Source: a virus
Length of the DNA stretch: 64,000 nucleotides
Direction: 5' to 3' (one strand)
IMG/VR virus record: IMGVR_UViG_3300035701_000003
Shown here piece by piece: positions 2,013 to 60,194 of the stretch. Within the stretch, counting starts at the first letter, position 1, and each line of letters begins with the position of its first letter. Below the pieces are notes generated by a model. That model searched no databases, was not told the DNA's origin, and was given only the letters and a program-made list of their open reading frames with translations. Both the position numbers and the translations under genes were made by a program.

Positions 2013-2615
2013 ATGGACTGGAGAAATACATTAAGTTTTCTTAAACAAACTGATCAAGAAGTTCCTCTTACTTTAGATTATATAAGAGATGGCAATATTA
2101 AACCCGGCGACTTCGTAACTTCTAAAGGTACTTCTATTCGTCCAGAGGATAATAAAGTTATTTTTAAACCTTTTGCTTTGTATAAAGTACTTGAAATTTA
2201 TCCGCAAGAAGGCCCTGGCGTTCAAGGACTTATACTAAATTCTGAATTAGGTAAATGGTACATACATTTTGGTAAAGATGGGGGGGCTAACTATTTCTAT
2301 CATGCTACTTTAACTCCAGAAGAGGAATTAGGTCAATTAGAAGGCCTTCCTTTTCGAATTATGGAGATGCTACATACTTATAAAAGTATAACTAGAAATA
2401 CTTTAATTTCGGAGATATTACAAGAAAATTATAGTGAAGATAAAAAGAAAATGGATTCGTTAAAGAATGACGTTTTTAGAGCTATCAAATTACTATTAGA
2501 CGCTGGTAAAATTCAAAGAGCTAAAAGACCAGGTTTTTACGAACTTAGTTTAGATGGTCAAAAGGAAATGCAAGAGCACTATAAAGGTCCTTTAGATAAT
2601 AACACTCCGGAGTAA
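2013..2615 (+). CDS. Hypothetical protein with WRxxLSF leader and possible C-terminal winged helix
   Basis: ATG 2013 gives MDWRNTLSF; C-terminus ITRNTLISEIL...AIKLLLDAGKIQRAKRPGFYELS looks wHTH-like. Confidence 0.5.
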   Translation: MDWRNTLSFLKQTDQEVPLTLDYIRDGNIKPGDFVTSKGTSIRPEDNKVIFKPFALYKVLEIYPQEGPGVQGLILNSELGKWYIHFGKDGGANYFYHATLTPEEELGQLEGLPFRIMEMLHTYKSITRNTLISEILQENYSEDKKKMDSLKNDVFRAIKLLLDAGKIQRAKRPGFYELSLDGQKEMQEHYKGPLDNNTPE

Positions 2616-2619
2616 TTCT

Positions 2620-4833
2620 TTGGCTGATATTAACGCTGATATAGGCGGAACTACTAATAATGTTGTAAGACATGTAAGTCCCAACGCCGCTGTCTTTTTT
2701 GTTAAGGGATTCGGGCAGGAAATTATAGCACAAGAGGTAATAATTGCTGATAATATTAAAGATGAAAAAACTATTGCTTCTATTGATGTTACTCTTACCG
2801 TTAGAAACAGTCCTGGTACCTTTACTTTACAGTTAAGAGATCCTGATAACATATTTATTTTGGAAGATAATCCTAATACTGAGATAGCAGCCTTAAAGAA
2901 AAATAGTCAGGCGAAGATTTATACTAGAGTAATGGGGGAGGAGAAGAAGGTAGTTGAAGATAAGAAATCAGGTCATACTTCCGGTTCTGTAACTTCTATT
3001 AATAAAGAATATCAATCTTATCCCGGAGAGTATTACTCTTGGCAGGATTATAACGACTGGTCTAAAGGATATCATATTGTTTTAGAAGATACTAAGACTA
3101 AACAAAGATATCCTACTCAATTTATTACAACTGAAGGTACTGTAAAAGAGAGATGGGCTTTTGATGAATTAGGTAATATTATATATGTATCTCTCCAAAG
3201 TTCAAAATACACAGACGTGCCTACCGAAGAGGCGTTATTAGCCGAGTTTGGAAGTTCTAGTACTACTAAAGAAAAAAAGTTTAGGATATCTAATGTTGAC
3301 GGCAGCTTGAATGTGACAGAAAACCCTCTTATAGCTCACCGTTATTATAATAAGGAACTCGTCGATGGACCCTACAGAGATTACAATGAGCAAGGCCCCC
3401 CCGGCCTGTTTCCGAAAGGTAAATGCCGGGTATCTCCTATGGATAGAGTTATAATTTTTATGACTCCGCGATTTGATAAAGATGGACACTTTAATCAAGG
3501 TGATAATGCTACTTATATGACTCCTGTTTTTACTGGGGTTGTTAACTCTGCTCAGCAAGGTTATAGCGATGGTCAGCATACTATTACAGTACAGGGAGAA
3601 GATGTTACAAAATATTTAAAACTATCTATAATTAACGTAAACCCCGCTTTAAATACGGGCAGAGAAATAGCGGGTCAATATAAGGACGAACCTATTACGA
3701 TTTGGGCCCATATATTTTTAGGATTAACTACCCCCGAAATTATTAGAGTTATTTGTTTAGGTACTGAAAGTTTATCAGGCGGGCGAAGAGGTACTCTTAA
3801 TCAAAAAATAGATGGAGTAGGTTTTTATAAGTTAGCCGCTGATAAAGGCGATCTAAAATTCTATGAGTATAATCCCAGTACTGATATGCCGACTCTTGAA
3901 GATAAAATGTCTGGAGTGCAGGTAACTAAAGCTAGTTTTAAGGAGACTTTGGGAAGTTTATTTAGCAATATTGCTGTACATATATATGATCCTTACCGAC
4001 AAGGTGGTGCTATTGATTTAGAAGGTTGGCGACCCTATGCATTATCTTTAGGTAATAATTGGAGTTTTTACCAAGCTGATTTTAAGACTAGAAGAGATAT
4101 AGCTTATAAAGCCGCAGAAGATAGTTTTTTTAATTTTTATGCTGATAGAAAAGGACATATTTGGTTTCATCCATATCGTTACGATATTTCTTGGATACTG
4201 GGGGCCAAAAATCCTAAAGTATATATTATAGATAATCCCAGTATTATAAGTTACGGGTTTATAGAAGATGATAGCGAACTATTTACTGAAGTTCAGGTTT
4301 CTACAGAACCCTCTTTTGGCATGGGGGAATTAAATAATATTGGCTTTTATACTGGTGCTATTAGAGATGATAATGCTATGTTAAAATATGGGCAAAGAAT
4401 CTTTGTTGGAGTAAATCCCGTAATAAATGTTAATGTTTCAAAAAGTCCTTATGTTAAAGAAACAGAACCTTCCATTAATAGAGGGATGATAGCCGCATCT
4501 ATTAATATTTTTGCAAAATCTTTATTGAAAAGACTTTTAGCAGGAAAATATCAAGGACAAGTTACTATAGTTGGAAGACCAGAGATAGATCCTGGGAGAC
4601 CCGTTTATATACCTATACGTAATATGATTTATTATGTAGAGACTGTAGAACATTCTTTTACTTTTGGAAATACTTTTACAACTACTTTACACTTAAGTTA
4701 CGGAAGGAAGCCTTGGGAGTTTCTACCAGAGTTATTAACTTTTTCTGAGAATGACGAAATTTATCTAACGGACGCTACTGCTTTTGATAGAAGGAAAGGT
4801 ACGGAGTTACAAGGTGACGATACGAACAAATGA
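2620..4833 (+). CDS. Baseplate hub / tail protein (T4 gp27 or Mu gp44-like)
   Basis: C-terminal GQVTIVGRPEIDPGRPVYIP...YYVETVEHSF...FTTTLHLSYGR and VFTGVV...ITVQGED are typical hub motifs; TTG start. Confidence 0.7.
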   Translation: MADINADIGGTTNNVVRHVSPNAAVFFVKGFGQEIIAQEVIIADNIKDEKTIASIDVTLTVRNSPGTFTLQLRDPDNIFILEDNPNTEIAALKKNSQAKIYTRVMGEEKKVVEDKKSGHTSGSVTSINKEYQSYPGEYYSWQDYNDWSKGYHIVLEDTKTKQRYPTQFITTEGTVKERWAFDELGNIIYVSLQSSKYTDVPTEEALLAEFGSSSTTKEKKFRISNVDGSLNVTENPLIAHRYYNKELVDGPYRDYNEQGPPGLFPKGKCRVSPMDRVIIFMTPRFDKDGHFNQGDNATYMTPVFTGVVNSAQQGYSDGQHTITVQGEDVTKYLKLSIINVNPALNTGREIAGQYKDEPITIWAHIFLGLTTPEIIRVICLGTESLSGGRRGTLNQKIDGVGFYKLAADKGDLKFYEYNPSTDMPTLEDKMSGVQVTKASFKETLGSLFSNIAVHIYDPYRQGGAIDLEGWRPYALSLGNNWSFYQADFKTRRDIAYKAAEDSFFNFYADRKGHIWFHPYRYDISWILGAKNPKVYIIDNPSIISYGFIEDDSELFTEVQVSTEPSFGMGELNNIGFYTGAIRDDNAMLKYGQRIFVGVNPVINVNVSKSPYVKETEPSINRGMIAASINIFAKSLLKRLLAGKYQGQVTIVGRPEIDPGRPVYIPIRNMIYYVETVEHSFTFGNTFTTTLHLSYGRKPWEFLPELLTFSENDEIYLTDATAFDRRKGTELQGDDTNK

Positions 4834-5326: not shown

Positions 5327-5450
5327 GATTCTTTGTTTTTAACCAAATTTCAAAGAAAATATTTTTGTTATCGAGTAACTAATCTACGGATAACTGTGTA
5401 TATTAATAGTGTAAGTAATTATTTTTTATAAAATAAATGGAGATGCTAAG

Positions 5451-6287: not shown

Positions 6288-6290
6288 GAT

Positions 6291-8305: not shown

Positions 8306-8309
8306 CTAA

Positions 8310-8855: not shown

Positions 8856-8899
8856 AGTAATAGGGCGTGTGTAATAAATGAAAATAGAACGGGGTATAT

Positions 8900-11998: not shown

Positions 11999-12826
11999 AT
12001 GAATAAATTAAACAAAATAAAACTACCAACCATGGAATCCGAAATTAAAAGTTTTATATTAAAAAAACTTCAAAAGTATTCTTCCATACCATCCCTTTCT
12101 GGCGAAGAATTTACTTTTCTCTCGGTGCTACTTCAAGATTTCGATGAAGAACATCCTGGTAATTGGAGAAAAGTTTATTATAATAATTCTCCTTTCTACT
12201 TCTATAGAAGTTGTCTTGATAATCGTCCTTCCCTTCCTTATTTCTTAATAACGCATAGTGATAGAGTTTCCGGGTTTTGGAGAAATTATACCGCTTATAT
12301 TGATACTATAAAAGACAATGGGGATTTACTAACAGGGCAATTAGACAATATAGTTGGTATAGCAATTGCTAGATATTTAACTTTTATAGGTATTCCTATT
12401 GATATTCTATTTACTACTAAAGAAGAATTAGTTAAATCTACTTATCAGGTTGTAGAAGTATGTAAGTTAGAAGGGAAAACTCCTATTACAATTGATATTG
12501 ATGTTTTTGATGAAATATCCGAATTTAAGAACGGTTTGATTTCTTTACGTTTTAAAGATAATGCTGGCGATATGTTACCTTCTTTAGTTACTGAACTACA
12601 AAGCGCAGCGATGACTATTAAAGTTCCTTATACCGAGAAGTTAGGTTACGCTGTAGTTGAAACTGGCTTTTTAGCTTCTGCTACTAATAATGAGTATCGG
12701 GGAGCTCATATTGGTTTACCTCTTATTAATTACCATAGTGATCAAGAAACCGCCTCTTGGAAGAGCGTGTTTAATATTATCCAATTGTTGAAGACATTTT
12801 TTGAAAAACAAATTAAAGGAGTATGA
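11999..12826 (+). CDS. M28/M42-like zinc aminopeptidase-fold protein
   Basis: ITHSDRV, GQLDNIVG, FTTKEE, IDID and C-terminal YHSDQE match the metal-ligand spacing. Confidence 0.65.
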   Translation: MNKLNKIKLPTMESEIKSFILKKLQKYSSIPSLSGEEFTFLSVLLQDFDEEHPGNWRKVYYNNSPFYFYRSCLDNRPSLPYFLITHSDRVSGFWRNYTAYIDTIKDNGDLLTGQLDNIVGIAIARYLTFIGIPIDILFTTKEELVKSTYQVVEVCKLEGKTPITIDIDVFDEISEFKNGLISLRFKDNAGDMLPSLVTELQSAAMTIKVPYTEKLGYAVVETGFLASATNNEYRGAHIGLPLINYHSDQETASWKSVFNIIQLLKTFFEKQIKGV

Positions 12827-29640: not shown

Positions 29641-32600
29641 ATGATACCTTCACGAAGTTTTTATAGTATTTCCCACAGAACGAGAGAGATACTAAATTCT
29701 ATCAATTCTGTATTGAAAAACAATGAACCATTACCTATTTTATCTACCATAAAAAGCGAACCTCCGATTGTTAAATCCTCCCCTGATAAGATTAATTTTA
29801 AAGATGCTATAGAGAGTAAGCGATTTTCCTATATAGGAATGTCTCTATACAAGGGAGCAAGCGAAGATGGTAATATAGGTAGAATATGGGTTAAGAAAGA
29901 GATTATAGACCCTAAGACGGGTGAGAAGCAGGAATGGTTAGTAACGTATACTACAGACGAAGATGACTTAGTTTATTCATTGGCAAGCAAGAGAATGAAG
30001 AAAATTGCTGACTACGGCCCTTTCGGAGTAGACGAACTTAAACATACTCAAGAAGGTATTGATAAAGCCGTTCAAGGTTTAGATATGCCTGAACTCGAAG
30101 ATACTGTTAACCCTCTCAAAGTACCTACTACTGACGCAGAAGCGAGAGATAGTACGGGGCATCAAGTACAGATGGGAAATGTAGTAGAGAATGAATTTAA
30201 TAAGCAAGGCGAAGTAGTTGATATATTAGGGCCTGACAAATTAGTTGTTAAATGGATGGATAAACCTTATAGTGAAGGCGAGATGGGAGATACTATAGCA
30301 TCAAGTGATATAGTAGTGGTTGGCTCTCAGAAGACAGCTTTTGATTACCGTGAAAATCTAATGAAAGGCTATAAGAAGCCATTGCCCGAATTGCAACCTG
30401 GTGATAGGGTAGAAGATACAAGAACAAAGAATATTGGTCTGGTAAAGGATATACAAGGAGATCTTGTAGAAGTAGATATGGGCACACATTCAATGAAAGT
30501 GCCTATAAGCGCAATAAACAAGCTGAGTGCTTTAAACAAACATAGTGTGAATATACAGATTATACCTGTTACTAGCTGGCAAAGAGGTAAGGTTGATCCT
30601 ACCGAATATGATGCCACTACTGATACTATAAGGGTTAGAGGGGATTATGATGTAAATAATGATCCTGCCGGATGGATGGTACACGAAAAGGTACACGCAA
30701 CATTAGCTGCAGCCGGTCAACAAAACAACTCAGGGAATTACCCCGATAATCCTATAGAGGAAAGAGCTTATAAAACACAATTTAATTATTTGAAATCTTT
30801 AGGACATACTTTTGATGATATATTTCAAATACCTACTATGGAACATAAAGCGCCTTATAGAAATATATTTGCAAAATGGTGGAACGCATCTTCTCCTCAA
30901 CAGCTTCCTACTTTAAGAACAGCCGGACAACCTAAACCGCAGGATATACCTATTGCGCCCGGTATCAAATCCAAGAATATTACAATGGATGAATCAGGTG
31001 GTGGAGGAACAGCGAAGGTTACAGTAGAGTTCAGTGACGTGAATAAAGGTTTGCAATTTTATCAAGAAGAAGTAGGACAACCACAAGCTCCACCTAAACC
31101 TCCTGAACAACCTAAAGAAGAAGAGAAACCCGAAGCCTCCGCGGAACAAGGACCCCCTCCCGTGCAAGGTCCTCAGTTACCTAATTTACCTACAGCGCGT
31201 TTGAAGTTTAATTTACAAGTTATCAGTAAAGTAGTCCACAGAAAAGACGGTTGGCATGTAGTTAGCGAAGAAGGAAAGAACTTAGGAGGCCCTTACCCTG
31301 AGAAAAAGAAGGCTATTAAAAGACTAAAACAAGTAGAATACTTTAAACATCATGGAAGCGCTGATGTAGTTAAAATGGATGTTCCATTTTTAATTAGGGA
31401 AATGGAATACTCTAAAGAAGATGCTAAAACTGATCAAGACTTACATAAAGCTACGGAGAATATGATTGATGAAGGCGATAAAGTATTAGAAATGAGTGAT
31501 TACGATAAGATATTTGATAAACCTAAGAAAGGTTCATTAAAGTTATCTTGGCAAGAACAAGGGCCAGGTGAAGATTTTCATCAAAACTTAGTGGATGAAG
31601 CCTATGATTTATGGCAGAAACCAGAGAATAATTGGAATAAAGACCAGTTTCTCCAGAACCTTCCTTCTCAAGCACACAGAGACGCTGTAATATTAGGTAA
31701 TCTTAACTATCAAGTAGGTAATGGGGGTTTTGAGCAATGGTTTGGTAATGATTATGGAGATAGAGATGCTGAATATTTAATAGGTACTTTACTTCCTGCT
31801 ATCGGTACCCCATCCGCTAAGAGAGTCATGTACTTAGTAGAGGAAGCTTACGACCTACGTGAAGAATATGATCCTTACGAAGGAGAACCTAACGAAGACG
31901 CCTCGAACGATTTAGACAATCTAGATAGCGAATATTATGCTATAGATGATGAGTTTATGAAAGATGTCAACCAATATTTATATAAACTAAAGATTCAAGG
32001 TTCATTAATATTCTCCTCTTCTGTAAAACAAGCAGCGTCCGATATTCATGATTATTTAGCAGAGAATGTAAGAGATACTGAAGATTTAGATGAAAGAGAT
32101 GTACAAAGAATAACAGAAAGAATATTATCACAACCATGGTGTAACTCTTCAAAGGAAAAAGTATTAAAACAAGTAAGAGATTGGATAGGATTAGAAAAAG
32201 AATCCTCAGCTGACGAAATACATACGTGGATAAGAGTTAAAAGAGTATTAGATGAAATGGGCGTAGACGAAACTACAGCAGCCAAATTCGTTGAAGATGT
32301 CAAAAAGTACTGGCAGGAATATATAGAATTACCTGATGAACAGATATATGATGCTTATAAAGCTTGGAAAGATGAAGAAGGCCCCAGAAAAATGACTGAT
32401 GAAGATTGGGACCAAAGATTCGAAAATGATGCTTTCAACAGAGAACAATTTGGTAGCAAAAAAGCTTCCTTAAAATTCTCACAAACAGAAGAAGATTATG
32501 ATTTTTATAATGATAATTATAGATTCAATTCTGGAGAAGAGCACGAGTGTGAAGACTGTGGAGCACCAGGAGCTAAATTATATAACACCTTCGGCCAAAA

Positions 32601-34425
32601 ACTTCAAATAGGAGGTTTTAGTAGTGATTTAGAGTTATGCGATAATTGTCATAAAGAGAGGTTTCCAGAACACTGGCGTTACAAGAAAAAAGCATCTTAC
32701 ATATATAAGCCCGGTGAGCAGATAGGTTATCATGGTAGGGAAGGCCGTATAGTTCGAGAAGATAATGGTGGTTACATTGTTTACTTTACGGATACCAACG
32801 AAGAACAATGGTTAGATAAAGAGGAATTACTCGAGCAGGAAGGATTAAAAGAACCAGAAAATGAATTTGATAAAGTACTCAAACTAAGAGATAGAGCAAG
32901 AGAAAGGAGAGACACAGATATGTCTAAAGAAACAAATTTTACCTTATGGTTTAACAAAAATAAAAATGAAACTTCCTATTGGGAAGGTTATTCTAATTTT
33001 ATTAAAACAGCTGCTCAACATAAACAGTTCAAAGATTGGATGAAAGAGAAGTTCGCAGATGTAGTAATAGAGGACGAACCCGAAACTAAGGATGGGGCTG
33101 CCTATGAATTACCTGATGGAAGTGGTTTTATGACTGGTACCGTTGGAAGTAAACAAGCTTCAGGAGTAGCCCTTAATATATTACCAGACCTCTTTGAAGA
33201 TAAGTTCGCGATGAGTAAGATACCTCCAGAATTAAGATTACTTCGCTCCAATGCTAAGCAAGCTCTTAGTAAAGTAGTAGAGCATATGCAAGTATTAGGA
33301 CGAGAGAGTACCCCAGCCGACTTCCCAATGGAATGGTTTTATAAGGATCAAGGTTATGTAGTTCCAGATAGTATAGGAGAGGTAAGAGCCCAATTACAAG
33401 AGATTATAGATTACGCCAACCGCGCAACTGGTAATAATTTCTATGGTAATATGAAGTCTTCTTTTAAAGTAATATCAAAGAGTGGGTTGCAAGGAGTTGA
33501 AATTATAAGAGAACTAATAGATGGAAAGATAAATAAATATGGTTACATCAATGAAAAGAACCAGTTTGTGGTGCTACCTAATTATAGAGAACTCCGTATA
33601 AACAGTCAATTAAATAGGCCTGATACAGGTGAAACAGTAAAAGTGATCAAATACGTTGATGTTTCGTTAGGTAGCACTGCTAATATGGTAGAGACTCTTA
33701 TGAAGAAGAAAGCAGGCGATGAAGCAGATGATTTAGCCGAAAAAGAGTGGTCTGATAAAGGGGAAGAAGATTGGAGTAGAAAACCCTCAGAAGGATTCAT
33801 ACCTACAAATAGAGGAATGCAGACACCCGACGATATAGTAAGTGATTTAACCTTTTTGAATTATGCTTATAATAGAGATAGATCTCCAGAAATAACTCCA
33901 GAGCGTTGGGCTAAGGTATATGGTCCCAACACAGAAACTATGGAAATGCGTTATCAAAGAGAAAAAGCTTCTGGCAAAACATTTACTAAAAAGGATATAA
34001 ATAAGGCTTTTATAAAATACGCTATTGATGTTAGCGATGAAATACCTCCAATGGGATGGGATGCTAGTACTCCTGGAAAACCAGCTGGGGCAGGAGCACC
34101 CAAGGAACCTATGCAGGGATTACAGGATAAGGATAAAGAACAAGAAGAAAAGAAGAATGTAATTTATGATAGTTCTAGTGATACAGGACCTCAATTCCAA
34201 ACTACTATTAATCCAGCTACAAAAGAGGTTACAGTGAAGTTTATGGATTCCCCTCAAAAGGAAGCTCTTGATGATGCAATGAAGACTCAAATGCAAAGCC
34301 CTCAGCTTCCTACGTTAAATACTACTCCACAGAATAATCAAGGAACACCAGGTACTCCAGGTGGACCGGGAGCAAACGAGGAACCGAATCAGTTTAAGAA
34401 TCAACAAGTACCAGTAAGTTTTTAA
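29641..34425 (+). CDS. 1594-aa multi-module (polyvalent/polyprotein-like) protein: KOW/SH3-like repeats, zincin HExxH domain, DMP19/DUF4375-like domain, Zn ribbon
   Basis: VHEKVH...PIEERAY; LNYQVGNGGFEQWFGN; CEDC...CDNC; GKNLGGPY...KRLKQVEYFK; modules separated by K/R-x-A/S sites. Confidence 0.7.
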   Translation: MIPSRSFYSISHRTREILNSINSVLKNNEPLPILSTIKSEPPIVKSSPDKINFKDAIESKRFSYIGMSLYKGASEDGNIGRIWVKKEIIDPKTGEKQEWLVTYTTDEDDLVYSLASKRMKKIADYGPFGVDELKHTQEGIDKAVQGLDMPELEDTVNPLKVPTTDAEARDSTGHQVQMGNVVENEFNKQGEVVDILGPDKLVVKWMDKPYSEGEMGDTIASSDIVVVGSQKTAFDYRENLMKGYKKPLPELQPGDRVEDTRTKNIGLVKDIQGDLVEVDMGTHSMKVPISAINKLSALNKHSVNIQIIPVTSWQRGKVDPTEYDATTDTIRVRGDYDVNNDPAGWMVHEKVHATLAAAGQQNNSGNYPDNPIEERAYKTQFNYLKSLGHTFDDIFQIPTMEHKAPYRNIFAKWWNASSPQQLPTLRTAGQPKPQDIPIAPGIKSKNITMDESGGGGTAKVTVEFSDVNKGLQFYQEEVGQPQAPPKPPEQPKEEEKPEASAEQGPPPVQGPQLPNLPTARLKFNLQVISKVVHRKDGWHVVSEEGKNLGGPYPEKKKAIKRLKQVEYFKHHGSADVVKMDVPFLIREMEYSKEDAKTDQDLHKATENMIDEGDKVLEMSDYDKIFDKPKKGSLKLSWQEQGPGEDFHQNLVDEAYDLWQKPENNWNKDQFLQNLPSQAHRDAVILGNLNYQVGNGGFEQWFGNDYGDRDAEYLIGTLLPAIGTPSAKRVMYLVEEAYDLREEYDPYEGEPNEDASNDLDNLDSEYYAIDDEFMKDVNQYLYKLKIQGSLIFSSSVKQAASDIHDYLAENVRDTEDLDERDVQRITERILSQPWCNSSKEKVLKQVRDWIGLEKESSADEIHTWIRVKRVLDEMGVDETTAAKFVEDVKKYWQEYIELPDEQIYDAYKAWKDEEGPRKMTDEDWDQRFENDAFNREQFGSKKASLKFSQTEEDYDFYNDNYRFNSGEEHECEDCGAPGAKLYNTFGQKLQIGGFSSDLELCDNCHKERFPEHWRYKKKASYIYKPGEQIGYHGREGRIVREDNGGYIVYFTDTNEEQWLDKEELLEQEGLKEPENEFDKVLKLRDRARERRDTDMSKETNFTLWFNKNKNETSYWEGYSNFIKTAAQHKQFKDWMKEKFADVVIEDEPETKDGAAYELPDGSGFMTGTVGSKQASGVALNILPDLFEDKFAMSKIPPELRLLRSNAKQALSKVVEHMQVLGRESTPADFPMEWFYKDQGYVVPDSIGEVRAQLQEIIDYANRATGNNFYGNMKSSFKVISKSGLQGVEIIRELIDGKINKYGYINEKNQFVVLPNYRELRINSQLNRPDTGETVKVIKYVDVSLGSTANMVETLMKKKAGDEADDLAEKEWSDKGEEDWSRKPSEGFIPTNRGMQTPDDIVSDLTFLNYAYNRDRSPEITPERWAKVYGPNTETMEMRYQREKASGKTFTKKDINKAFIKYAIDVSDEIPPMGWDASTPGKPAGAGAPKEPMQGLQDKDKEQEEKKNVIYDSSSDTGPQFQTTINPATKEVTVKFMDSPQKEALDDAMKTQMQSPQLPTLNTTPQNNQGTPGTPGGPGANEEPNQFKNQQVPVSF

Positions 34426-34428
34426 GTT

Positions 34429-34782
34429 ATGAGTAATTGGCGAAAAGTATTAAGTTGGCAAGTACAACCCGAAGCTCCTAAAGATACTAGAGCTTTATTT
34501 AGAGATATATCAATGAGAAAACCAAGTAGCTGGGCGGAAGTAGGGACTTATGATTTTCATCAATTCGATACTTTACATCAACAGGCTCTTTTGGGAAAGC
34601 GTGTAATAGAAGGATATGTAGCAACTCCCTATAGTACTATTACACCACTTTATGATATCTCCGGAAGAACATCTGAATTTATATTACATAATCAAGCAGA
34701 TGATTTTTATTATTATATAAATACCGAAGGTTTCTCTTATGCAAGATATACATTTAGAATATTAAATTTTCCAAACGCGTGA
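34429..34782 (+). CDS. Tagged hypothetical protein (WRKVLSWQVQ leader)
   Basis: MSNWRKVLSWQVQ; C-terminal YINTEGFSYARY. Confidence 0.6.
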   Translation: MSNWRKVLSWQVQPEAPKDTRALFRDISMRKPSSWAEVGTYDFHQFDTLHQQALLGKRVIEGYVATPYSTITPLYDISGRTSEFILHNQADDFYYYINTEGFSYARYTFRILNFPNA

Positions 34783-37647: not shown

Positions 37648-37818
37648 ATGAAACTAGTAAATTTTTATTTCCGCTGTAAGTGCGGGAAATATTTAGCTTT
37701 TCATACTACTGAGGAGATTCAGGGATGCCCAAAATGTATGAGCATCCTTCGCTTACCTAAGGTGTTTATTAACTATCTATTGACACGTGAGAGAGATGGA
37801 AAAGAAGAACTGGCGTGA
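37648..37818 (+). CDS. Small Zn-finger protein (56 aa; not in the ORF track)
   Basis: MKLVNFYFRCKCGK...GCPKCM... Confidence 0.55.
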   Translation: MKLVNFYFRCKCGKYLAFHTTEEIQGCPKCMSILRLPKVFINYLLTRERDGKEELA

Positions 37819-38068
37819 AATACTGAGTTGGCAGATACAACCCGAAGAATCCTCTCGGAATATTAATAAGATGATAGCTATGAAGGCTTCTCAAGAAATT
37901 ATTGATGATTTGGCTATTATTATTCCCGATAAAGTTCAAAATCAAATAGATCCTTCTCTCGGAGACCAAATTGATAATATAGATGAAAATGTTGTTACTA
38001 AATACATTAAATTATATTTAGGAGCCTACATAAGACATTTAACGCGCGAGGATATTTTTGCCGACTAA
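37796..38068 (+). CDS. Tagged hypothetical protein (WREILSWQIQ leader)
   Basis: MEKKNWREILSWQIQ. Confidence 0.6.
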   Translation: MEKKNWREILSWQIQPEESSRNINKMIAMKASQEIIDDLAIIIPDKVQNQIDPSLGDQIDNIDENVVTKYIKLYLGAYIRHLTREDIFAD

Positions 38069-38405
38069 CTGGAGACAAATATTAAAATTCGGTTGGTTGA
38101 ACGAAGAAGAGATTCGTAAAAACCAAAAAGAAGAGTATGAGACTAAGACTTGGGAAGAACATGAGATTCCTTTCAGTAGAGAAAAAGGTGAAGAATTGCA
38201 ACGGGCTTTGGCATATGCTACAGAAGGAGCTATTAATTACCTTTTTGAACCTAACGTATTTCACGATAGAGTGCGCATTCTCGGGACATTACAGAATTAT
38301 AAGGAATCTTATATAACAGCATATCAGCATAAAATGAAGCTATATGGTGAATTAGTCGAATTCTATACTAAACTAGTACAAGATTACCCTGTAGAGGAAT
38401 ATTAA
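38058..38405 (+). CDS. Tagged hypothetical protein (WRQILKFGW leader)
   Basis: TTG start, then PTNWRQILKF. Confidence 0.55.
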   Translation: MPTNWRQILKFGWLNEEEIRKNQKEEYETKTWEEHEIPFSREKGEELQRALAYATEGAINYLFEPNVFHDRVRILGTLQNYKESYITAYQHKMKLYGELVEFYTKLVQDYPVEEY

Positions 38406-42245: not shown

Positions 42246-42259
42246 ATAAGGAAAGTAAT

Positions 42260-46093: not shown

Positions 46094-46117
46094 AATTAAT
46101 AGAGAACGTGTATTCTA

Positions 46118-46136
46118 CGAATACACTTCATAATAT
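46118..46136. other. 8-bp perfect hairpin in the intergenic gap
   Basis: GTGTATTC-tac-GAATACAC. Confidence 0.65.
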
Positions 46137-46159
46137 TTAAATATAAAGGAGAAAAAAGA

Positions 46160-50014: not shown

Positions 50015-50032
50015 ACAAGATAAGGTTTAATT

Positions 50033-53000: not shown

Positions 53001-54040
53001 TTAGAATGCAAAATGGAACTAATCAAGGTATTTATATAAGAGGTAACAATACTTCAGAAGGACTTAATGTTATATATATAGATAGTTGTACTGTTACTTG
53101 TTATGATAAAAATTTCACAACTTGGTTAATGCGTATAGATGGTTACCCCGGCCCCGGTACAACTAGACTCGATTCTGTTTTTGTAAGATATGGATTTTAT
53201 AGAAATTGGATGATAACTCCGCAGGACATTCAAAAGGACGCTATTATAGCACAGTATGCGCAAAATATATTTATTATAGGAAACGATGTTGCTGTTATGA
53301 ATGATTATAATGTTTTCGATACACAAGCTCATAATGATTGCTTTGCAACCGACAATATTTGCAAGAACGTTACTATAGCATTTAATAGATTATTTAACTG
53401 GCAGGCGAACAACGGGAGATCCCAAGTTCTTATTTGTAGTGTTGATGGATTTTTTAAAATTTATGCAAATATAATAGCTTCACCTTATTTTAGAATAAAT
53501 GGTCAGGCTTGGCCCTCTACTTTAAATATGGGAGGGTCCAGTAATTCTCCAACTTGTTACATTTTCAATAATACCTTTATAGGGGGTTCTAATCCTTACG
53601 TAGTTCAGATAGACGGCGCTATAAATACCCCACAGACTCGTCTTAAGAATAATATTATTTATTCTATGTACCCGTGTGATTCTGGTACTAACCCCCGAGT
53701 TCATTTTAGAACAACTTCCCCGACTTGGAATTATATAGATGGTAACTTATATGCGGAATATTCCGATGGAAGTACTAATAATTTGATTAGTAGTTATACC
53801 ATGACTCAATTAAGAGCCTCTCCAAGATTCGCTGAAAGTATAGGTATTGGTTCTGATAGATGGAATATATCAAACTCAACTATATTTACAAATATAGCTA
53901 CTTGGGATTTAACATTAAAGGTAGGTTCCGCCGCTATTGATAAAGGAGTAGATTTAACTGGTGAGGGCGTAGAATATACAAAAGATATTACAGGAAAGAC
54001 TAGAACAGGTTCTTGGGATATTGGAGCTTACGAAAAGTAA
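50033..54040 (+). CDS. 1335-aa exported protein: four Ig-like repeats of about 98 aa plus two beta-helix/choice-of-anchor-Q-like units
   Basis: MYRKVNAFLRTLLYIVISFMITGGTFP|QV; WDMGDYEY and WDIGAYEK. Confidence 0.7.
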   Translation: MYRKVNAFLRTLLYIVISFMITGGTFPQVHKIIIGNKISGPSQVDSLPSTFVFNDITGAELSTLYTSNGVTLTNFDSAYAYGGGKEFRVNLGSWGSSYKRVHRDDVVYIRNTSSGSYLTTVNATLTVGGVSDVYSITTKASIIDTIPADFQFADQLNAELSTLYSSNGITLNAFDSSYAYAAGKEFKVNSGSFSSTIRRVHRNDIVYIRNTSSSSYSTIVNATLNIGGVTDVYSITTKAPPDTIPASFVFTPVTNAALSTLYTSNGVTLTSLDSAYAYATGKEFKVNSGSFSSTIRRVHGNDVVYIRNTSSGSYSTTVTATLTVGGVGGIYSITTSTAPDTVPATFAFNDITGAELSTLYTSNTITLTNFDSAYAYAAGKLFQVNSGSFSATRRKVYNNNTVRIQNTSSSSYLTTVDATLTVGGISDTYSITTRSATPPLYVEGGHFISKNGSNTVPYNTWAKACTNWTASSPLWPYLNIGDTIWVDGGADSTNYTGVVQIDNKTGTAALPIVITKGISPGHNGEVWFDGQDATNKNFILHGCKYMKVQRINTYRGGILIDENGSSLVNVIYLDSIKVRNSYTQGIEISGYPATSNVDSVLVRWCDIRNDRVTSTETDGIAFSFMTNFFALNNNIYVNNQNASHVDCIMGYASVSGQSITNVTIARNHMINYSQKTGYPSNADNGVIMSELVGTIKIYDNFLAEPRFDSNAGIGFFTTGTNFLLYFYNNTVVTNTSNNALQIATYAGTINPASEIKNNIFYSKASSSAYEFSSSITAANINYNCYYYTTGNTSICNYGGTKNLAQMKTAGAETNGINTNPLLANPNYANIAHFDDRLQAGSPCINIGLNTLGSDYAKDRVDYIRTGSWDMGDYEYAPLYVEHGHFISPNGSNTSPYDTWQKAQTTVSSSSIWSQVTAGDTVWVDGGVGYDSLVYNTNMDIQTSGNANALVVVRAGKTPGHYGKVVIAGSTSGTNITIQDRKYLKLEKITVRMQNGTNQGIYIRGNNTSEGLNVIYIDSCTVTCYDKNFTTWLMRIDGYPGPGTTRLDSVFVRYGFYRNWMITPQDIQKDAIIAQYAQNIFIIGNDVAVMNDYNVFDTQAHNDCFATDNICKNVTIAFNRLFNWQANNGRSQVLICSVDGFFKIYANIIASPYFRINGQAWPSTLNMGGSSNSPTCYIFNNTFIGGSNPYVVQIDGAINTPQTRLKNNIIYSMYPCDSGTNPRVHFRTTSPTWNYIDGNLYAEYSDGSTNNLISSYTMTQLRASPRFAESIGIGSDRWNISNSTIFTNIATWDLTLKVGSAAIDKGVDLTGEGVEYTKDITGKTRTGSWDIGAYEK
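50164..51340 (+). repeat. Four diverged repeats of about 294-297 bp (about 98 aa)
   Basis: D(S/T)xP..F.F.....AELSTLY(T/S)SN..TL..FDSAYAY...(R/I)NTSS.SY.T.V.ATL..GG....YSITT starting near 50164, 50461, 50755, 51049. Confidence 0.9.
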
Positions 54041-55533
54041 TGAAGAACTGGAGACAAATATTAGGTTGGCAAGTTCAGAATAGTTATACTGTTGAAGAAA
54101 TGATAACGATGTTAGCTCCTCACCAAATATGGAAGGACGCTCGAGACTACTCTTATCTTTTTATGATAGGTGATGTAATTGAAGTTGTATGGAAAGAGAA
54201 GGATTCTGGCGGGGAACCGCGGTATGTTATACAAGAGGCCATATGGGCAAGTTCTCTTCACAGTAGAGTATCTCCTGGTTGTTTCGCTTATCTTTATCTA
54301 GATGCCGGCCCTTTTGAATTATTGAGTGAAGAAGATATAAATAAACTCTCTTGGCAAGTATTCTTAGGAGATATAGACCCTATGGACAGAGGTATTATGG
54401 CTAGTTTACTAACCGCTGACGATGATCATGTAGTAGCTTTATTATGCATACCTTCCGATACTACTATAGATGATATAGCTAAAGATATGATCGATTCGGG
54501 GTTTACTGAAGAAGCTTTTTTGTTTCAAGATATGGTAAAAAGAGCAAAAGGAGTAGCATGGGAGGCTACCGATGAATTCTCTAACGTAATGAGAATAGAG
54601 GAAATTAAAAGATATTATAAAGTACATTATCCCAACGACGAACTAAACTTTATTCCCGACTGGTTGAAGGTTAAAAAGGCTTTTAAGGAGATAGTAGATA
54701 GTTATAACCTTCCTGATAAAGAATCCTCTAAACTATCATGGCAAGATTCGACTTATGGTGGTAAATATGATATTGGTGCTTTAGTATTTGACCCGCTATC
54801 TAAAAGATTTGGTAAGGTTACTTTTGTAGGACCTTTAAGTAAAGTAGAAGGACTAGATAAGGGTAAACAAGTTTATTTAACAAAATATAAAATAAGAAAC
54901 GAGAAAAAAGATATTCCTTCAGAAGATGACCCTACCGTAATGCTTTTGGACTTAAACGTAGGATTCGCCCACTATGAAGGAAATATACAATCTCCCAACG
55001 AATTTATGACTATAGACCCTCCTAAGACTGTTATAAGAGGTTTAACAAGTGGTGTTAAGAAGGTAAAGAAACTGCCAGAGGAAGGGGATTCCCACGAAGA
55101 TATATTCGAAACTTCTTCCCCCAATCATACTTACTTTAAAGACGCTAGACTTTCTTTAGAAGTAGTTGGACAAGGAATATTCAAACTATCATGGCAAATA
55201 CAAGAACCAGTTTTAAAAGTAGGGGATAAAGTAAAGATAATAGCATTTCTTAAAAAATTAAGAGATTTGGATATTGTTTTTTACGCTCGGAATACTGACG
55301 AATTCGATCCAAATACTATTTATGAGGTAGCATCTATAGATACTAGCGAGGTTGGAACGATGGGTATTTATAGTGATAACATGTGGGTAAACATAAGAGA
55401 AAACTCAATGGGGGCTGGTTGGTGGATTCCTTATCATTATTGGCAGGAATTTTTAGAGATAGTAGAATCTAAAGAAGCATCTTTAACACCCGCTGATAAA
55501 GAAGAATGGCTACAAATAATAGAAGGGGGATAA
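54040..55533 (+). CDS. Modular tagged protein (WRQILGWQVQ leader and three internal KLSWQ sites)
   Basis: ATG 54040 gives MKNWRQILGWQVQ; KLSWQ at 54343, 54730, 55183. Confidence 0.65.
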   Translation: MKNWRQILGWQVQNSYTVEEMITMLAPHQIWKDARDYSYLFMIGDVIEVVWKEKDSGGEPRYVIQEAIWASSLHSRVSPGCFAYLYLDAGPFELLSEEDINKLSWQVFLGDIDPMDRGIMASLLTADDDHVVALLCIPSDTTIDDIAKDMIDSGFTEEAFLFQDMVKRAKGVAWEATDEFSNVMRIEEIKRYYKVHYPNDELNFIPDWLKVKKAFKEIVDSYNLPDKESSKLSWQDSTYGGKYDIGALVFDPLSKRFGKVTFVGPLSKVEGLDKGKQVYLTKYKIRNEKKDIPSEDDPTVMLLDLNVGFAHYEGNIQSPNEFMTIDPPKTVIRGLTSGVKKVKKLPEEGDSHEDIFETSSPNHTYFKDARLSLEVVGQGIFKLSWQIQEPVLKVGDKVKIIAFLKKLRDLDIVFYARNTDEFDPNTIYEVASIDTSEVGTMGIYSDNMWVNIRENSMGAGWWIPYHYWQEFLEIVESKEASLTPADKEEWLQIIEGG

Positions 55534-55535
55534 TA

Positions 55536-56312: not shown

Positions 56313-56812
56313 TAACTTACTGGAATCAATTTATAGCTACATTCAAGGATATTTTATTAGCATCTTTGTTCTTTGCTATATGCGCATTTTTAAATGCTTC
56401 TATGGATGTAACTAAAGATAAATTTTCTTCTAGTGTTTACAGTAAAATCTCCGAACCCGGCACTGCCACTTATAAATACTTTGAAAGTGACTGGAGAAAC
56501 AAATGGGAAACCTGGCCAGATGGGGGGTTAATATTGGATAAGGATGGTAATAAGATTCCAAAATGGTTTTTAGGAATACATATTGTACCTTTGAATCACC
56601 CCATGTTTTTTGATAGTTGGCATCTGTTTAAATCTGCAATGGTATTTTTCTTTGGAGTAACATTAATTGTTCTTTATTTTAAAGCTGCTAAAATTATATT
56701 TAAATTTAATAAGTGGTATTACTGGGTCGTATTAGGAATAGTGTTAGTATGGTTCTTTCTCGACTGGAATATTGTGTTTAATCTATTTTATGATCATTGG
56801 CTAATGGTATGA
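56309..56812 (+). CDS. Membrane protein
   Basis: Three hydrophobic segments; FLNASMD...WRNKW...DSWHLFK. Confidence 0.6.
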   Translation: MITYWNQFIATFKDILLASLFFAICAFLNASMDVTKDKFSSSVYSKISEPGTATYKYFESDWRNKWETWPDGGLILDKDGNKIPKWFLGIHIVPLNHPMFFDSWHLFKSAMVFFFGVTLIVLYFKAAKIIFKFNKWYYWVVLGIVLVWFFLDWNIVFNLFYDHWLMV

Positions 56813-59001
56813 ATGAACCGGACTTAAAACTAAGTTGGAAAGTTGAGATACTTCCGGACTCTAAAGAAATTCTTAAGGATAAATCATGGAGCGATTCTAA
56901 TTATGAAAAACAGACTCAATACTGGGTGGACGATGCTCGAGTGAAATCAGAAGCCTACCAAAAATATATTTTCTTTATAATAGATAACGGGCATATAACA
57001 CCAAGTTCTCATAGTATTTTTAATGCTTACATAAATGAGAATAAAGATAATTTAACTATAGAGGAGATAGCACAAGCTTTAAATGACTTATGGCCTACCA
57101 CCGACGAAGATTCTAAGGACTTTTTACTGTATAATGCTCGAAGATTAGGAATAAAAGAATCCTCCTCCAAATTAAGTTGGCAAGTACAAGAGCCTTCCTC
57201 CTTCGAGGAACTGGTTGGATATTTAATACATTATGGTAGTCCCCTTTCTCACAGTTACTACCGTAATGAATATGGCGTAATAACTAGTGTGGTAACATCC
57301 GACGACCCCAAATATAAGGATACAATTTTACTCTGGGGGTTTTGGGCGGGTTCTGCTGAAGACGCTTTATATTATTACGAACACCCCCAGAAGCTAGTCG
57401 AATCTAGATTACCTTCTTTTTGGCCCGTGCCCCTTACCGATTTTGATAAAATAAAAGTTATTAAAGAAGTAACTATTTCTTCTCTTAAACTCTCCTGGCA
57501 GACCTTTAATATCTATGAAGGTAAATATAGAGAAGGACCTGGTTTCGATTATATAGTTACTAAGGATGGTAAACCTTTTTCTCACGTTACTTCTCTCGCT
57601 ATAGAAAATCATTCTCCTACTGGATTCGCTTGGGGTTACGGTGGTTCTGGACCCTCTCAACTCGCACTCGCCATCCTTTATGATCATACTAATGATGCTG
57701 AATTTGCTAAAAAATGGAGATGGGCATTTAAGGATGATTATACTTCCAAATGGCCCTCTAATAGAGATTGGCAATTATCCGGAGATGAAATAGATAATTG
57801 GATAAACGAAAAGACTATACAAAAGGAATCCTGGGTTATTAGAAGAACTCTCTCTAAAGGCGAAATAAGAGACTTGATAACTTCGGTAGGTTTAACTCCT
57901 ATTAATTTCTACATGGGCAAACGAACTAGAAGAGTAGACGCTGGTTACTTAGTAAATGATAAATGGGAAAATATCCCTGGGGAAATGATTGAGAAATTAA
58001 AAAGTGAACTGTCGGCTCTTACTCCGGAAGGGAGAATAGAGCAATCAAGGTATAAAGGAAAAAGTATAATAGTAAAAGTCCCTGTTTATAGAGATACCCC
58101 TAACTTGCCTTGGAGGGAAGTTAAAAAACAATTAAAAGCTTTAGGGTTTGATAGAATAGATGTTATAACAGGAACCACCGAAATAAGAGTGGATGTTTGG
58201 GGAATAGACGACCTTCATCCTACTCATAGAAGGGAAATGGTTCGTGAAATTACTACTATATTAAGACAATTCAATCCTAATTTTAAAGCCTATGAAACCA
58301 ACTTACCAGGTTACTTTACCTTTACAGCACCAATAAAAATACAAGAATATCCAGATGAAGTTACTTCTAGTTTAGAAAAAGAATCTTGGGCTATGACTAA
58401 GAATATGAGTAAGCAACGCTTAAGGGAAATAATAAATGAAGTAGGTTTAACTGCTTTAAACCTTTATATAGGACGCCGCCAAAGAAAAGCGTTTGTAGGT
58501 TATAGACCTAATAATAGATGGGAAAATATACCTCCGGAAACCGTACAGCTTTTGAAAGATAGACTAGAACAAGAAGCCCCCGATACGGAAGTACAATTCC
58601 CCATTACCAGTCCTTATTTTCAATATTTAGGCCCCCGCGTAAGTGAAAAAGCCAAAAAGTTTCTAGTTATTTTCGTATCTATAAAAAGAGATAGACAATT
58701 GCTTCCAGTAAAAGAAGTTAAGGATGCTATTAAAGAGAAATTTCCTCAGTATGAAGTTAGACTTTTTACTCGAACTAATGAAATAGAAATTTCTATTGAT
58801 ACTCCTTGGAATATAGAAGGTAGATCCGAAAATTTAAGAGGGCCGACTAAAGAAGCAAGATGCCAAGAATTACTAAATATATTAAAACAGTTTAATACTA
58901 ATACTATAATATCACCGTCTAATAATTGGCGGAGGAACGAATCTGGATATCATTTCCTTATTCCCTTTTCTCCTTATCAAGAATATGTTACTGGAGAATG
59001 A
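56809..59001 (+). CDS. Modular tagged protein with a DUF6166-like domain and a duplicated C-terminal module
   Basis: HSPTGFAWGYGGSGPSQLALAIL; KLSW at 56827, 57169, 57487; two paralogous units each starting KESW. Confidence 0.65.
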   Translation: MNEPDLKLSWKVEILPDSKEILKDKSWSDSNYEKQTQYWVDDARVKSEAYQKYIFFIIDNGHITPSSHSIFNAYINENKDNLTIEEIAQALNDLWPTTDEDSKDFLLYNARRLGIKESSSKLSWQVQEPSSFEELVGYLIHYGSPLSHSYYRNEYGVITSVVTSDDPKYKDTILLWGFWAGSAEDALYYYEHPQKLVESRLPSFWPVPLTDFDKIKVIKEVTISSLKLSWQTFNIYEGKYREGPGFDYIVTKDGKPFSHVTSLAIENHSPTGFAWGYGGSGPSQLALAILYDHTNDAEFAKKWRWAFKDDYTSKWPSNRDWQLSGDEIDNWINEKTIQKESWVIRRTLSKGEIRDLITSVGLTPINFYMGKRTRRVDAGYLVNDKWENIPGEMIEKLKSELSALTPEGRIEQSRYKGKSIIVKVPVYRDTPNLPWREVKKQLKALGFDRIDVITGTTEIRVDVWGIDDLHPTHRREMVREITTILRQFNPNFKAYETNLPGYFTFTAPIKIQEYPDEVTSSLEKESWAMTKNMSKQRLREIINEVGLTALNLYIGRRQRKAFVGYRPNNRWENIPPETVQLLKDRLEQEAPDTEVQFPITSPYFQYLGPRVSEKAKKFLVIFVSIKRDRQLLPVKEVKDAIKEKFPQYEVRLFTRTNEIEISIDTPWNIEGRSENLRGPTKEARCQELLNILKQFNTNTIISPSNNWRRNESGYHFLIPFSPYQEYVTGE

Positions 59002-59015
59002 ATGAATGAATGAAT
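58996..59015 (+). repeat. (GAAT)5 microsatellite spanning a stop/start junction
   Basis: gaatgaatgaatgaatgaat contains the TGA of the upstream gene and several ATGs. Confidence 0.8.
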
Positions 59016-59833
59016 TAGTTGCTTTAAGTAAAAGACATCCCCTTTGTAAAATATGCACTGTATTCGAAGACGACCTCCTTAACGACATTACCCTTGATAT
59101 AGTATTACAAAGGAAAACGTATAAAGAAATATGTGAATGTTACTCTAAACTATTACCCCCTAACATCCCTGATATAAACGATATTAATGTTAGAAATCAC
59201 AAAAGACATTGCGATCCTGGCTTACTAGCTAAGGAATACTTACAACAACAGGGTATGGCTATTACTCCAGGTGAGATTGCTGTAAAGTTATACGCAGAAA
59301 TTTATAAGGATGAGATTGATAAGAACAACACATTAAATGAATTGTATAGAGAAAGAATCAAAAATATGCAATCTCTTCAATTAGTGCTAGATGAAAAGCA
59401 TTTAAGAGCCGATGAATTGGAAAGAACTTTACAAAAAGCAAAAGATGAAAGACAACCAGATTCTGTTATAAACGATATGGCTTACCGGTTAAAGGAAATA
59501 CAAGGTGATATAAGATCCTATATTAAGCAGATAGATTCCATGCAAGGGGAAGTTCAAGATGTAATATTAAAAGAGAAGCAGGCTGAAAAGACCCCGATGG
59601 AAGGGACTATCTATGTTACTCAAAACTATGTAAATATATTTCAAGTTCATATGCAATCCTTTCTTGATGAATTAGTACCTTCAATGTTACAAGAGTTTAG
59701 AGATATTCCCGAAAGAGGAAAGAAAACCATACAACTAATTACATCTTGTATGGATAGACATATTGGCTCTGCTCTTGATGAAACTAAGTTATTAAAGTAT
59801 ACAAAAGGTAAAAAAATATTAAATGGAGACTAG
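59006..59833 (+). CDS. Probable terminase small subunit
   Basis: HPLCKIC...HKRHC, HTH-like N-terminus plus long coiled coil; just upstream of TerL. Confidence 0.5.
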   Translation: MNELVALSKRHPLCKICTVFEDDLLNDITLDIVLQRKTYKEICECYSKLLPPNIPDINDINVRNHKRHCDPGLLAKEYLQQQGMAITPGEIAVKLYAEIYKDEIDKNNTLNELYRERIKNMQSLQLVLDEKHLRADELERTLQKAKDERQPDSVINDMAYRLKEIQGDIRSYIKQIDSMQGEVQDVILKEKQAEKTPMEGTIYVTQNYVNIFQVHMQSFLDELVPSMLQEFRDIPERGKKTIQLITSCMDRHIGSALDETKLLKYTKGKKILNGD

Positions 59834-60194
59834 ATATACCGATACTAAGAGTAGAGGGTTGAAGATTTTATCTTGGCAAGTACAACTGCTTACTTGGGGC
59901 GATTTTCTAAAAGAGGTAGGCCCCAATCAAATTTGGGAAGCCAAGAATGGTCCGGGACTCGCGGGGCATTATTTACATACTACTATAGAATCTAATACGT
60001 ATCCTCTTTGGATGACCCATATAGATATTACAAGGGCGCTATGGTTACCTCAAGTGGATTACTCTTTATCCGATGACGACCACCATGCTTATAGGTTAAT
60101 ACAACTATATTTTGTATTTATAGGTTATAAAACCTATATTCTTATTACCGCTTGCGTTGTCGAGTCCCGCGGACCTTTTATGAGGGTTAAATAA
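59823..60194 (+). CDS. Tagged hypothetical protein (KILSWQVQ near the N-terminus)
   Basis: RGLKILSWQVQ at 59862-59885. Confidence 0.55.
   Translation: METRYTDTKSRGLKILSWQVQLLTWGDFLKEVGPNQIWEAKNGPGLAGHYLHTTIESNTYPLWMTHIDITRALWLPQVDYSLSDDDHHAYRLIQLYFVFIGYKTYILITACVVESRGPFMRVK

Follow-up and report, generated by a model that had tools for sequence, protein, structure and literature searches.

Copies of the LSW Peptide in the Window

The window analyzed in the present study is the 64,000-nucleotide stretch of DNA from IMG/VR virus record IMGVR_UViG_3300035701_000003, which belongs to an uncultured phage with a source contig of at least 176,978 bp. Its late genes encode a set of otherwise dissimilar proteins that carry a short peptide with the core L-S-W-Q, hereafter referred to as the LSW tag, either as an N-terminal leader or at the internal junctions between the modules of larger proteins. 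A six-frame scan of the window located nine exact copies of LSWQ, all in frame, in six plus-strand open reading frames (ORFs) that start at positions 29641, 34429, 37787, 54013, 56797, and 59823; the L of each copy lies at 31543, 34450, 37823, 54346, 54733, 55186, 57172, 57490, and 59868. The original prediction, which was made from the sequence alone, had listed these nine copies in six ORFs correctly. One further copy on the same strand reads LSWK (L at 56830), and degenerate forms comprise the plus-strand leaders MDWRNTLSF (2013), TNWRQILKFGW (38058), and MKNWRQILGWQVQ (54040), as well as two plus-strand KESW junctions at approximately 57823 and 58378.

The 70 called proteins (20,885 amino acids) have a composition from which 0.065 copies of LSWQ are expected against the nine seen, and shuffling within proteins (n = 2000) gave a mean of 0.054 and a maximum of 2. 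The two most enriched tetrapeptides in the whole window proteome were WQVQ and LSWQ. Enrichment over shuffled proteins had been set beforehand as a test of the motif, and it was found.

The codons that encode the tag vary among copies: Leu is encoded by TTA, CTG, CTC, and CTA, Ser by AGT and TCN, and the Arg of the leaders by CGN or AGA. When all pairs of tags in the window were compared, identical residues shared identical codons in 72 cases, with 76.9 expected from the codon usage of the phage. Since codon identity is at chance, the tag is conserved by selection on the peptide and not on the DNA. An earlier claim held that the leaders at 38067 and 54046 share 18 identical nucleotides and that the tag thus spreads as a DNA cassette; the identity itself was confirmed, but it is an isolated exception, and the spread as a cassette fails on the codon data. 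In the related contig G002 (described below), the codon identity of the tags was above expectation (304 versus 208) because its Imm5-like modules were recently duplicated. This leader pair and these recent paralogues speak for an explanation in which the tag is not a signal, but the outcome of recent duplication or of a cassette that recombines as DNA, or the conserved first strand of a single very divergent domain family. The chance-level codon identity in the window speaks against it, as do the passenger domains that are discussed below.

Forms of the Tag and Relatives That Bear It

Megablast searches with the 29-40 kb region of the window returned no match among cultured phages, and the terminase of the window is merely 21-33% identical to those of cultured phages. 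Relatives were gathered with a back-translated leader pattern, which led to the IMG/VR contigs G001 and G002 with many copies each, and further tagged relatives were then gathered through searches with the G002 capsid protein and the window terminase. An 830-amino-acid (aa) protein had no relative in IMG/VR. Of 5.8 billion proteins, only 8 were matched at E<=10 by a profile built from the small leader-bearing proteins, since a leader of this length cannot score.

Sequence logos were constructed from 53 seed copies, 18 of which are leaders. The N-terminal form is M-(x)-x-N-W-R-K-[IV]-[LF]-S-W-[QE]-x-x-[PE], and the internal junction form is [EK]-[AS]-S-L-K-[LV]-[SA]-W-[QE]-x-[QP]-[PE]. Trp is present in 53/53 seeds and is preceded by Ser or Ala only, the seed pattern itself having demanded S or A at this position; the leader at 54040 departs from the seeds in having Gly before Trp (LGW). 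The modules between tags are mostly 77-200 aa long. A position weight matrix detected 61 tags in 523 ORFs of the clade, with real scores of up to 32.5 and best shuffled scores of 15.8, 15.1, and 12.0, and the 61 tags outscored all shuffled sequences but two. Two more distant relatives with complete genomes, G006 (171.8 kb, bounded by terminal repeats) and G007 (194 kb), the capsid proteins of which show an identity of 65%, have no tag in 117,000 aa, and the tag system therefore belongs to a subclade.

Tagged Genes of the Window

All of the tagged genes lie on the plus strand. The largest (29641..34425) encodes a 1594-aa multidomain protein of the polyvalent type with the strong internal tag GSLKLSWQEQGP (L at 31543; matrix score 27.5), which is followed directly by a DMP19 domain (residues 677-780; PF14300, E 5.5e-11). 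This protein also has an HExxH module near residue 348 (HEKVH), for which the ESM Atlas gave leads to Zn peptidases at 0.86-0.89, below the level counted as evidence, a degenerate tag, ASLKFSQ, at 32476, and a 69-aa module that is 71% identical to a head-module protein of G003. The next gene (34429..34782) begins 3 nucleotides past the stop codon of the 1594-aa gene and encodes a single-module protein of 117 aa, the leader of which, MSNWRKVLSWQVQPE, has the top matrix score of the set (32.5). Two further single-module proteins follow: one of 90 aa (37796..38068) with the leader MEKKNWREILSWQIQPEE (score 29.6), and one of 115 aa (38058..38405) with the variant leader (M)PTNWRQILKFGW. An orthologue of the latter, P0007, opens with MTNWRKILKFGW, and this variant leader is therefore conserved.

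The 497-aa protein encoded at 54040..55533, the start of which overlaps the stop codon of the last fiber gene, has four modules, the leader MKNWRQILGWQVQ (L at 54061), and internal KLSWQ tags with L at 54346, 54733, and 55186 (scores 19-24); no homologue of similar length other than itself was found among 5.8 billion proteins. The 730-aa protein encoded at 56809..59001 has five modules, the N-terminal tag MNEPDLKLSWKVE (L at 56830), internal tags with L at 57172 and 57490, and the two KESW junctions at approximately 57823 and 58378. It contains a DUF6166 domain at 57547-57807, and P0158 shows KLSWQLP at the position of a window KESW. The 123-aa protein encoded at 59823..60194, just upstream of the terminase gene, bears the tag RGLKILSWQVQ at residues 12-22 (score 24.1) in the style of the internal form, and the same position is also tagged in the relatives L037, L038, L041, and L042. 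Finally, the 200-aa ORF at 2013..2615 is a weak member because its degenerate leader, MDWRNTLSF, has no core Trp. The remainder of this ORF shows homology to modules that are tagged in G001 (L005:9674) and G002 (L017:11194), and the ORF is flanked by a tail-tube-initiator-like gene and the gene for a 737-aa tail protein.

Full leaders are thus present on three single-module proteins of the window (34429, 37796, and 38058), and the NWR element is present in four leaders (34429, 37796, 38058, and 54040), to which the degenerate leader at 2013 is added.

Gene Context and the Head Module

Tagged ORFs account for 7/26 late or structural ORFs of the window and for 0/41 ORFs of the replication block at 6-29.6 kb (Fisher p=7.6e-4), and 6/8 tagged ORFs overlap or abut (within 3 nucleotides) the preceding gene. 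In the window they flank tail, fiber, and terminase genes, and in relatives the head maturation protease gene is on one side of the cargo genes and the capsid genes are on the other. Tagged genes are therefore confined to late and structural regions.

The gene order in these relatives begins with a ~657-aa protein, which is probably the portal, followed by a small leader protein, a 335-aa head maturation protease homologue, a NUDIX protein, and the cargo polyproteins, and continues with a WR-repeat protein, a small acidic protein, a ~580-aa protein, a 150-aa protein, and the 316-aa capsid protein (phrog_2522). The 335-aa protein matches phrog_18299 ‘head maturation protease’ at E 1e-10 and Pfam S78 at E ~1e-3, below the cut-off. 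An AlphaFold2 model of this protease family was too poor for a fold search (predicted local distance difference test, pLDDT, 54), a profile search against PDB sequences gave no match, and Pfam Trypsin_2 had no match in the relatives. A comparison of orthogroups between tag-bearing and tagless genomes revealed nothing tag-specific and was uninformative because the contigs are too fragmentary.

Two proteins of the head module contain repeats. The WR-repeat protein has internal repeats of the type [NSD]-W-R-x-x-[LF] ... S-F-K-Q-K-P-D-G-T, and the small acidic protein has two or three L-S-F-S-D-like repeats near its N terminus (both at L023:6069-7327, L024:6115-7343, G003:6961-8127, G004:14742-15638, and G005:7706-8398). 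The WR-repeat family is also found in the tagless G006 and G007. These two proteins may represent the ancestral context of the tag.

Several other features of these regions were observed. A papain-like C1 cysteine peptidase of 268 aa with a C-terminal membrane helix is encoded beside the head protease at L023:1495-2301 and beside the terminase at L038:2579-3385. As a general reader of the tag, this peptidase received no support: it was found on 2 sampled contigs only and not in the window, and its absence elsewhere is uncertain, the contigs being fragmentary. The major capsid gene (phrog_2522) is split by an inserted ORF in several relatives (the L034 and L036 capsid loci; G002, L016:11088-13526); in G002, a 223-aa ORF at 12000-12668 lies inside the capsid gene, and the capsid protein is therefore read in pieces. 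The large terminase gene of the window (60210-62723) contains an intein (PF14890, E 1.2e-21), whereas the terminases of L040, L041, and L042 are ~633-647 aa long and intein-free, and those of L038 and L039 are longer. Four successive fiber-like genes, each encoding ~1300 aa, occupy 38421-54040 of the window with tagged cargo genes on either side, and contain traces of phage tail repeat, YadA-head-like, and polysaccharide-lyase-like sequences. The first of these fiber-like proteins has the tag-like sequence VLFSWQIWKRD (42216-42245) 9 residues before its stop codon, with a matrix score of 10.4, which is below the threshold and may be due to chance.

Passenger Modules and Fold Boundaries

After the tags were stripped, 73 modules fell into 55 BLAST clusters. 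The claim that the ORF bodies are otherwise dissimilar held after this treatment, with the exception of modules 4 and 5 of the protein in the ORF that starts at 56797. The only named Pfam passengers of the window are DMP19 and DUF6166. Imm5_like occurs in six proteins of G002, and one Imm5 paralogue was found with either form of the tag. The relatives also contain an HAD-type acid phosphatase in four proteins (one below the Pfam cut-off), a histone-deacetylase-type domain (Hist_deacetyl), Fic/Doc twice, one 2H phosphoesterase, and a weak GNAT match. In three genomes (the window, G009, and L024), tagged polyproteins contain HExxH modules. Some passengers appear to be of the effector or anti-defense type, as had been anticipated.

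The tag is positioned 0-8 residues ahead of domains that were defined independently. DUF6166 has over 100 homologues that stand alone and are tagless, and their alignment begins 2-6 residues past the Trp of the tag; the Imm5_like matches in G002 similarly begin 2-7 residues past this Trp. In an AlphaFold2 model for the 56809 protein, built from 104 sequences, the linker and tag had pLDDT values of 61-65 and no regular packing, with values >90 in the next domain; the tag is placed outside the fold by this model and predicted to be flexible. Regarding DUF6166 itself, more than 700 relatives were detected at E<1e-10, mostly as standalone proteins of 100-130 aa, and its model is a small alpha/beta domain (pLDDT 88) with no Foldseek match in the PDB.

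In view of the unrelated modules, the tagless DUF6166 homologues, and the AlphaFold2 model, a single diverged domain family was rejected as the source of the tag. With passengers of different Pfam families added to the codon data, the explanation by duplication, cassette, or shared first strand is largely refuted already and retains hardly any probability. A role as a 2A-like ribosome-skipping peptide or as an arrest peptide was also set aside, the tag lying 2-12 residues from many start codons; its spacing is unlike that of SecM or TnaC.

The position of the tag bears on whether it serves as a cut site. In one alternative, tags are only the cut sites of a specific protease, either an HExxH module acting in cis or another phage protease, and have no role in loading the virion; a few late ORFs could then yield many small proteins, as do viral polyproteins with 3C or TEV-type sites. 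The junction position, the linker upstream, the length of the motif, and its invariant aromatic residue followed by Q or E resemble high-specificity polyprotein sites, HExxH modules are present in the tagged polyproteins, and the K that precedes the hydrophobic L would be compatible with a zincin that cuts N-terminally to a hydrophobic residue. On the other hand, proteins of a single module retain the tag at 2-12 residues from the start, where the separation of domains would serve no purpose, tagged genes are strictly located in structural modules and adjoin head genes, and an HExxH module was not seen on every tag-bearing contig. We consider processing as the sole function to be decidedly unlikely.

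The converse alternative is that the tag only docks: like an encapsulin targeting peptide, it would load cargo by binding to a core protein or to the inside of the capsid shell and would stay uncut, several tags per polyprotein providing avidity. Its core alternates between hydrophobic and polar residues (L-S-W-Q-V-Q), like a beta-augmentation strand, S-L-K is reminiscent of G-S-L-K in encapsulin peptides, and the NWRK extension is easier to understand as an extra binding surface than as protease subsites. The tag may also mimic a motif of a core protein, considering the WR-repeat, which is also present in tagless relatives, and the L-S-F-S-D repeats. However, a tag 0-8 residues from the next fold, with a flexible linker upstream and no spacer, is more like a junction made for cutting; polyproteins of 1300-2900 aa would have to exit through the tail as a single chain; and HExxH peptidase modules are embedded in the cargo. 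We regard docking without cleavage as doubtful.

Genome-Specific Residues after the Invariant Trp

The residues that follow Trp differ between genomes, being Q-[VI]-Q in the window, E-E in G002, [DN]-I-P in G004, and K-K-E-E in G005. The first of them (W+1) is Q in 10/11 tags of the window, E in 15/16 of G002, and D or N in 8/8 of G004, and leaders and junctions are alike in this respect. The mutual information between genome and W+1 was 1.32 bits versus 0.55 bits after permutation (p<2e-4). Uniformity is not absolute, W+1 being mixed in G001 and G009. With codon identity at chance, the flavor of the window cannot be the result of recent duplication. Since W+1 and W+2 are genome-specific in both forms of the tag, they point to one co-evolving partner in trans, and the simplest reading of these alignments, which they suggest, is that a single phage-encoded partner reads all copies and drifts with them.

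This pattern is also relevant to the idea that the tag is directed at the host, as a short linear motif that, during infection or once delivered, is read by a host protease, serves as a degron, or is bound by a host hub protein. The capsid and scaffold leaders of the staphylococcal phage 80alpha mimic the L27 leader that is cut by Prp, which a short leader ending in an aromatic residue resembles in outline, and the tag is attached to enzymes and immunity-type domains with intracellular functions. Nevertheless, on visual comparison the motif is unlike the L27 leader, the tag is entirely absent from complete relatives, and a difference between related phages at W+1 and W+2 together with near-uniformity within a genome fits a phage-encoded partner better. 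A host-directed role is regarded as very unlikely.

A Second Tag in Another Phage Lineage

Homologues of module 1 of the 56809 protein that occur as standalone proteins bear an unrelated leader, N-F-E-R-G-x-D-P-K-K-A-M-G-I-G. It represents a second tag, ..E-[SN]-x-x-F-E-R-G-x-D-P-K-x-[AS]-[ML]-[GN]-I-G, in another lineage of uncultured phages (L077-L108; P0019, P0030, P0043, and P0152). A scan with this FERG pattern detected the tag 82 times across 32 IMG/VR stretches, both at N termini and at junctions, and polyproteins of ~1170-1190 aa (L095 and L105) contain 6-7 copies each. P0043 has the FERG tag twice, and the second copy stands where the window has SSKLSWQVQEP, after the shared domain end RLGI[KT]ES.

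The FERG tag resembles the LSW tag in its leader and junction forms, its use in polyproteins, and a passenger homologous to module 1 of the 56809 protein, and differs in being another peptide and in having a near-invariant Glu four residues before Phe. In the sampled loci, the two tags never co-occur, and LSW and FERG loci have passenger modules in common, but no core genes. Unrelated peptides that take the same role on homologous passengers provide the strongest argument for lineage-specific signals.

Discussion

The original prediction described the LSW peptide as a portable signal on unrelated passengers, a description that is sustained by selection at the peptide level, the occurrence of leaders as well as internal junctions, and retention across a clade of phages. 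The reading that we favor, and to which we assign an even chance, is that the peptide is a virion-cargo tag for docking and/or proteolysis, and that the tagged proteins are phage-type polyvalent proteins. In this reading, which is based on sequence comparisons, a module would consist of the tag followed by a passenger domain. A module encoded singly would have the M-x-NWRK-[IV] extension ahead of the core, whereas in polyvalent polyproteins, which string several modules together, this place would be taken by S-L-K and a Ser/Glu/Lys-rich linker.

The features of the tag further suggest recognition by a partner, packaging, cleavage at a defined position, and delivery to the host. A phage-encoded partner would recognize the core [LFV]-[SA]-W-[QE], most likely the head maturation protease and/or a component of the prohead core or shell, or alternatively the HExxH peptidase module inside the cargo polyproteins. 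This partner would incorporate the modules during head assembly and would probably cut them apart. The preferred cut would lie directly after W+1, with a hydrophobic residue at P4, S or A at P3, W at P2, and Q or E at P1, a pattern reminiscent of the S/A/G-x-E rule for the head proteases of phiKZ and SPN3US (PMC10052503), and would free each domain at the N terminus of its standalone homologues. The cut may instead lie before the hydrophobic Leu, if made by an HExxH module in cis, or at a Glu in the upstream linker, and the site K/L-x-S that was proposed previously may be one among several possible positions. The modules would then enter the host along with the DNA and act there at an early stage. 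The NWRK extension and its likeness to the WR-repeat head-module protein suggest a binding role for the tag beyond that of protease subsites.

A number of points weigh against the cargo-tag reading. No protease, scaffold, portal, or capsid gene was found within the window, and the head protease family of the relatives also occurs in the tagless G007 and is therefore not tag-specific. The capsid protein, the 150-aa protein, and the ~580-aa head protein of the relatives are without tags. The residue at W+1 is Q, E, K, D, or N according to the genome, and mixed in G001 and G009, which is awkward for a strict P1. Cleavage alone does not account for the NWRK extension. As for a T4-like cut at a Glu ahead of the tag, the enrichment of this residue was modest (22/50 versus 13.6 expected). 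Moreover, many tagged genes of G001 and G002 are among baseplate genes, and the tagged proteins may be located in the tail rather than in the head.

Considering the two unrelated peptides together, a broader proposal is that tailed phages use lineage-specific peptide ‘zip codes’ in at least two dialects, LSW and FERG-DPK, and that any small domain so tagged becomes cargo that is loaded, cut, and injected; we judge this to be plausible, but slightly more apt to be wrong than right. If this is the case, anti-defense and host-takeover modules would be swappable between phages by re-tagging, the movement of effector modules between phages would be traceable, the same passenger already being tagged differently in two lineages, and the concept of polyvalent proteins would become a defined, testable code from which injected proteins may be listed by sequence. 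A tag together with its reader would also constitute a natural portable system for loading proteins into capsids, and the 10-12 residue peptide might be borrowed for loading chosen proteins. The catalog of tagged modules, most of which belong to no known family, would represent candidate early-acting anti-defense proteins.

Comparison with Known Systems

As a long site that separates the modules of a polyprotein, with a hydrophobic P4, an aromatic or hydrophobic P2, and Q or E at P1, the junction form is reminiscent of the sites of the 3C, 3CL, and TEV NIa proteases of eukaryotic viruses; the protease folds and the viruses are unrelated, and the resemblance is an analogy only. The cargo-loading peptides of encapsulins are likewise short and conserved, are found on unrelated cargo, and bind the inside of a shell with the HK97 fold. 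Unlike the LSW tag, they are usually C-terminal, are uncut, and do not form polyprotein junctions.

The head proteases of the giant phages phiKZ and SPN3US cleave numerous head and ejection proteins at a short motif that these proteins have in common, either S/A/G-x-E or A-x-E (PMC10052503, PMC5694885). A small P3, a free P2, and Glu at P1 fit the [SA]-W-E of G002, whereas these three-residue motifs remove long propeptides and delimit no swappable modules, and the window has Q after Trp.

The unrelated T4 internal proteins IPI-III and Alt share an N-terminal leader of ~10 residues that targets them to the prohead and terminates in a gp21 site (Mullaney and Black 1996, in PMC10052503; PMC3012670), and this cargo counters host defense after injection (PMC10052503; PMC3012670). 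The LSW tag is similarly a short N-terminal leader on unrelated proteins. The two have no similarity in sequence. The T4 leader is N-terminal only and ends in L/I-x-E, whereas the LSW tag also occurs at internal junctions, has an invariant Trp, and has no invariant Glu, being L-S-W-Q in the window and [SA]-W-E in some relatives only (G002). The PHROGs and Pfam scans of the tagged proteins detected no family of T4 internal proteins, and no gp21 or HK97-type prohead protease was found in the window.

The concept of phage-type polyvalent proteins describes large chains encoded by late genes that join unrelated effector and anti-defense domains, such as a zincin peptidase, 2H, Fic/Doc, and phosphatases (PMC5512222). 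These proteins are encoded near virion genes and were proposed to be packaged, co-delivered with the DNA, and cut by their own zincin peptidase domains, the HExxH peptidase being their hallmark hub domain (PMC5512222). The tagged proteins of the window are alike in that the 54040 and 56809 proteins comprise 4-5 modules unrelated by BLAST, the 1594-aa protein combines DMP19 with HExxH, and tagged ORFs are found among late and virion genes with none in the replication block. They are unlike them in that each LSW module is preceded by a conserved peptide of 10-12 residues that also heads single-domain proteins and occurs in lineage dialects. The description of polyvalent proteins contains no conserved junction peptide, and the word ‘linker’ is absent from its text (Iyer, Burroughs, Anand, de Souza, Aravind 2017; PMC5512222). 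Within the searchable literature, no phage paper contains the motif strings, and the papers on polyvalent proteins and jumbo phages make no mention of such tags, in agreement with the initial remark that the motif was not recognized from described phages. Taken together, the concept of a leader, a head protease, and an injected cargo is already known from T4 and giant phages, whereas a long conserved tag that delimits swappable modules, is used both as a leader and at junctions, and exists in dialects is new.

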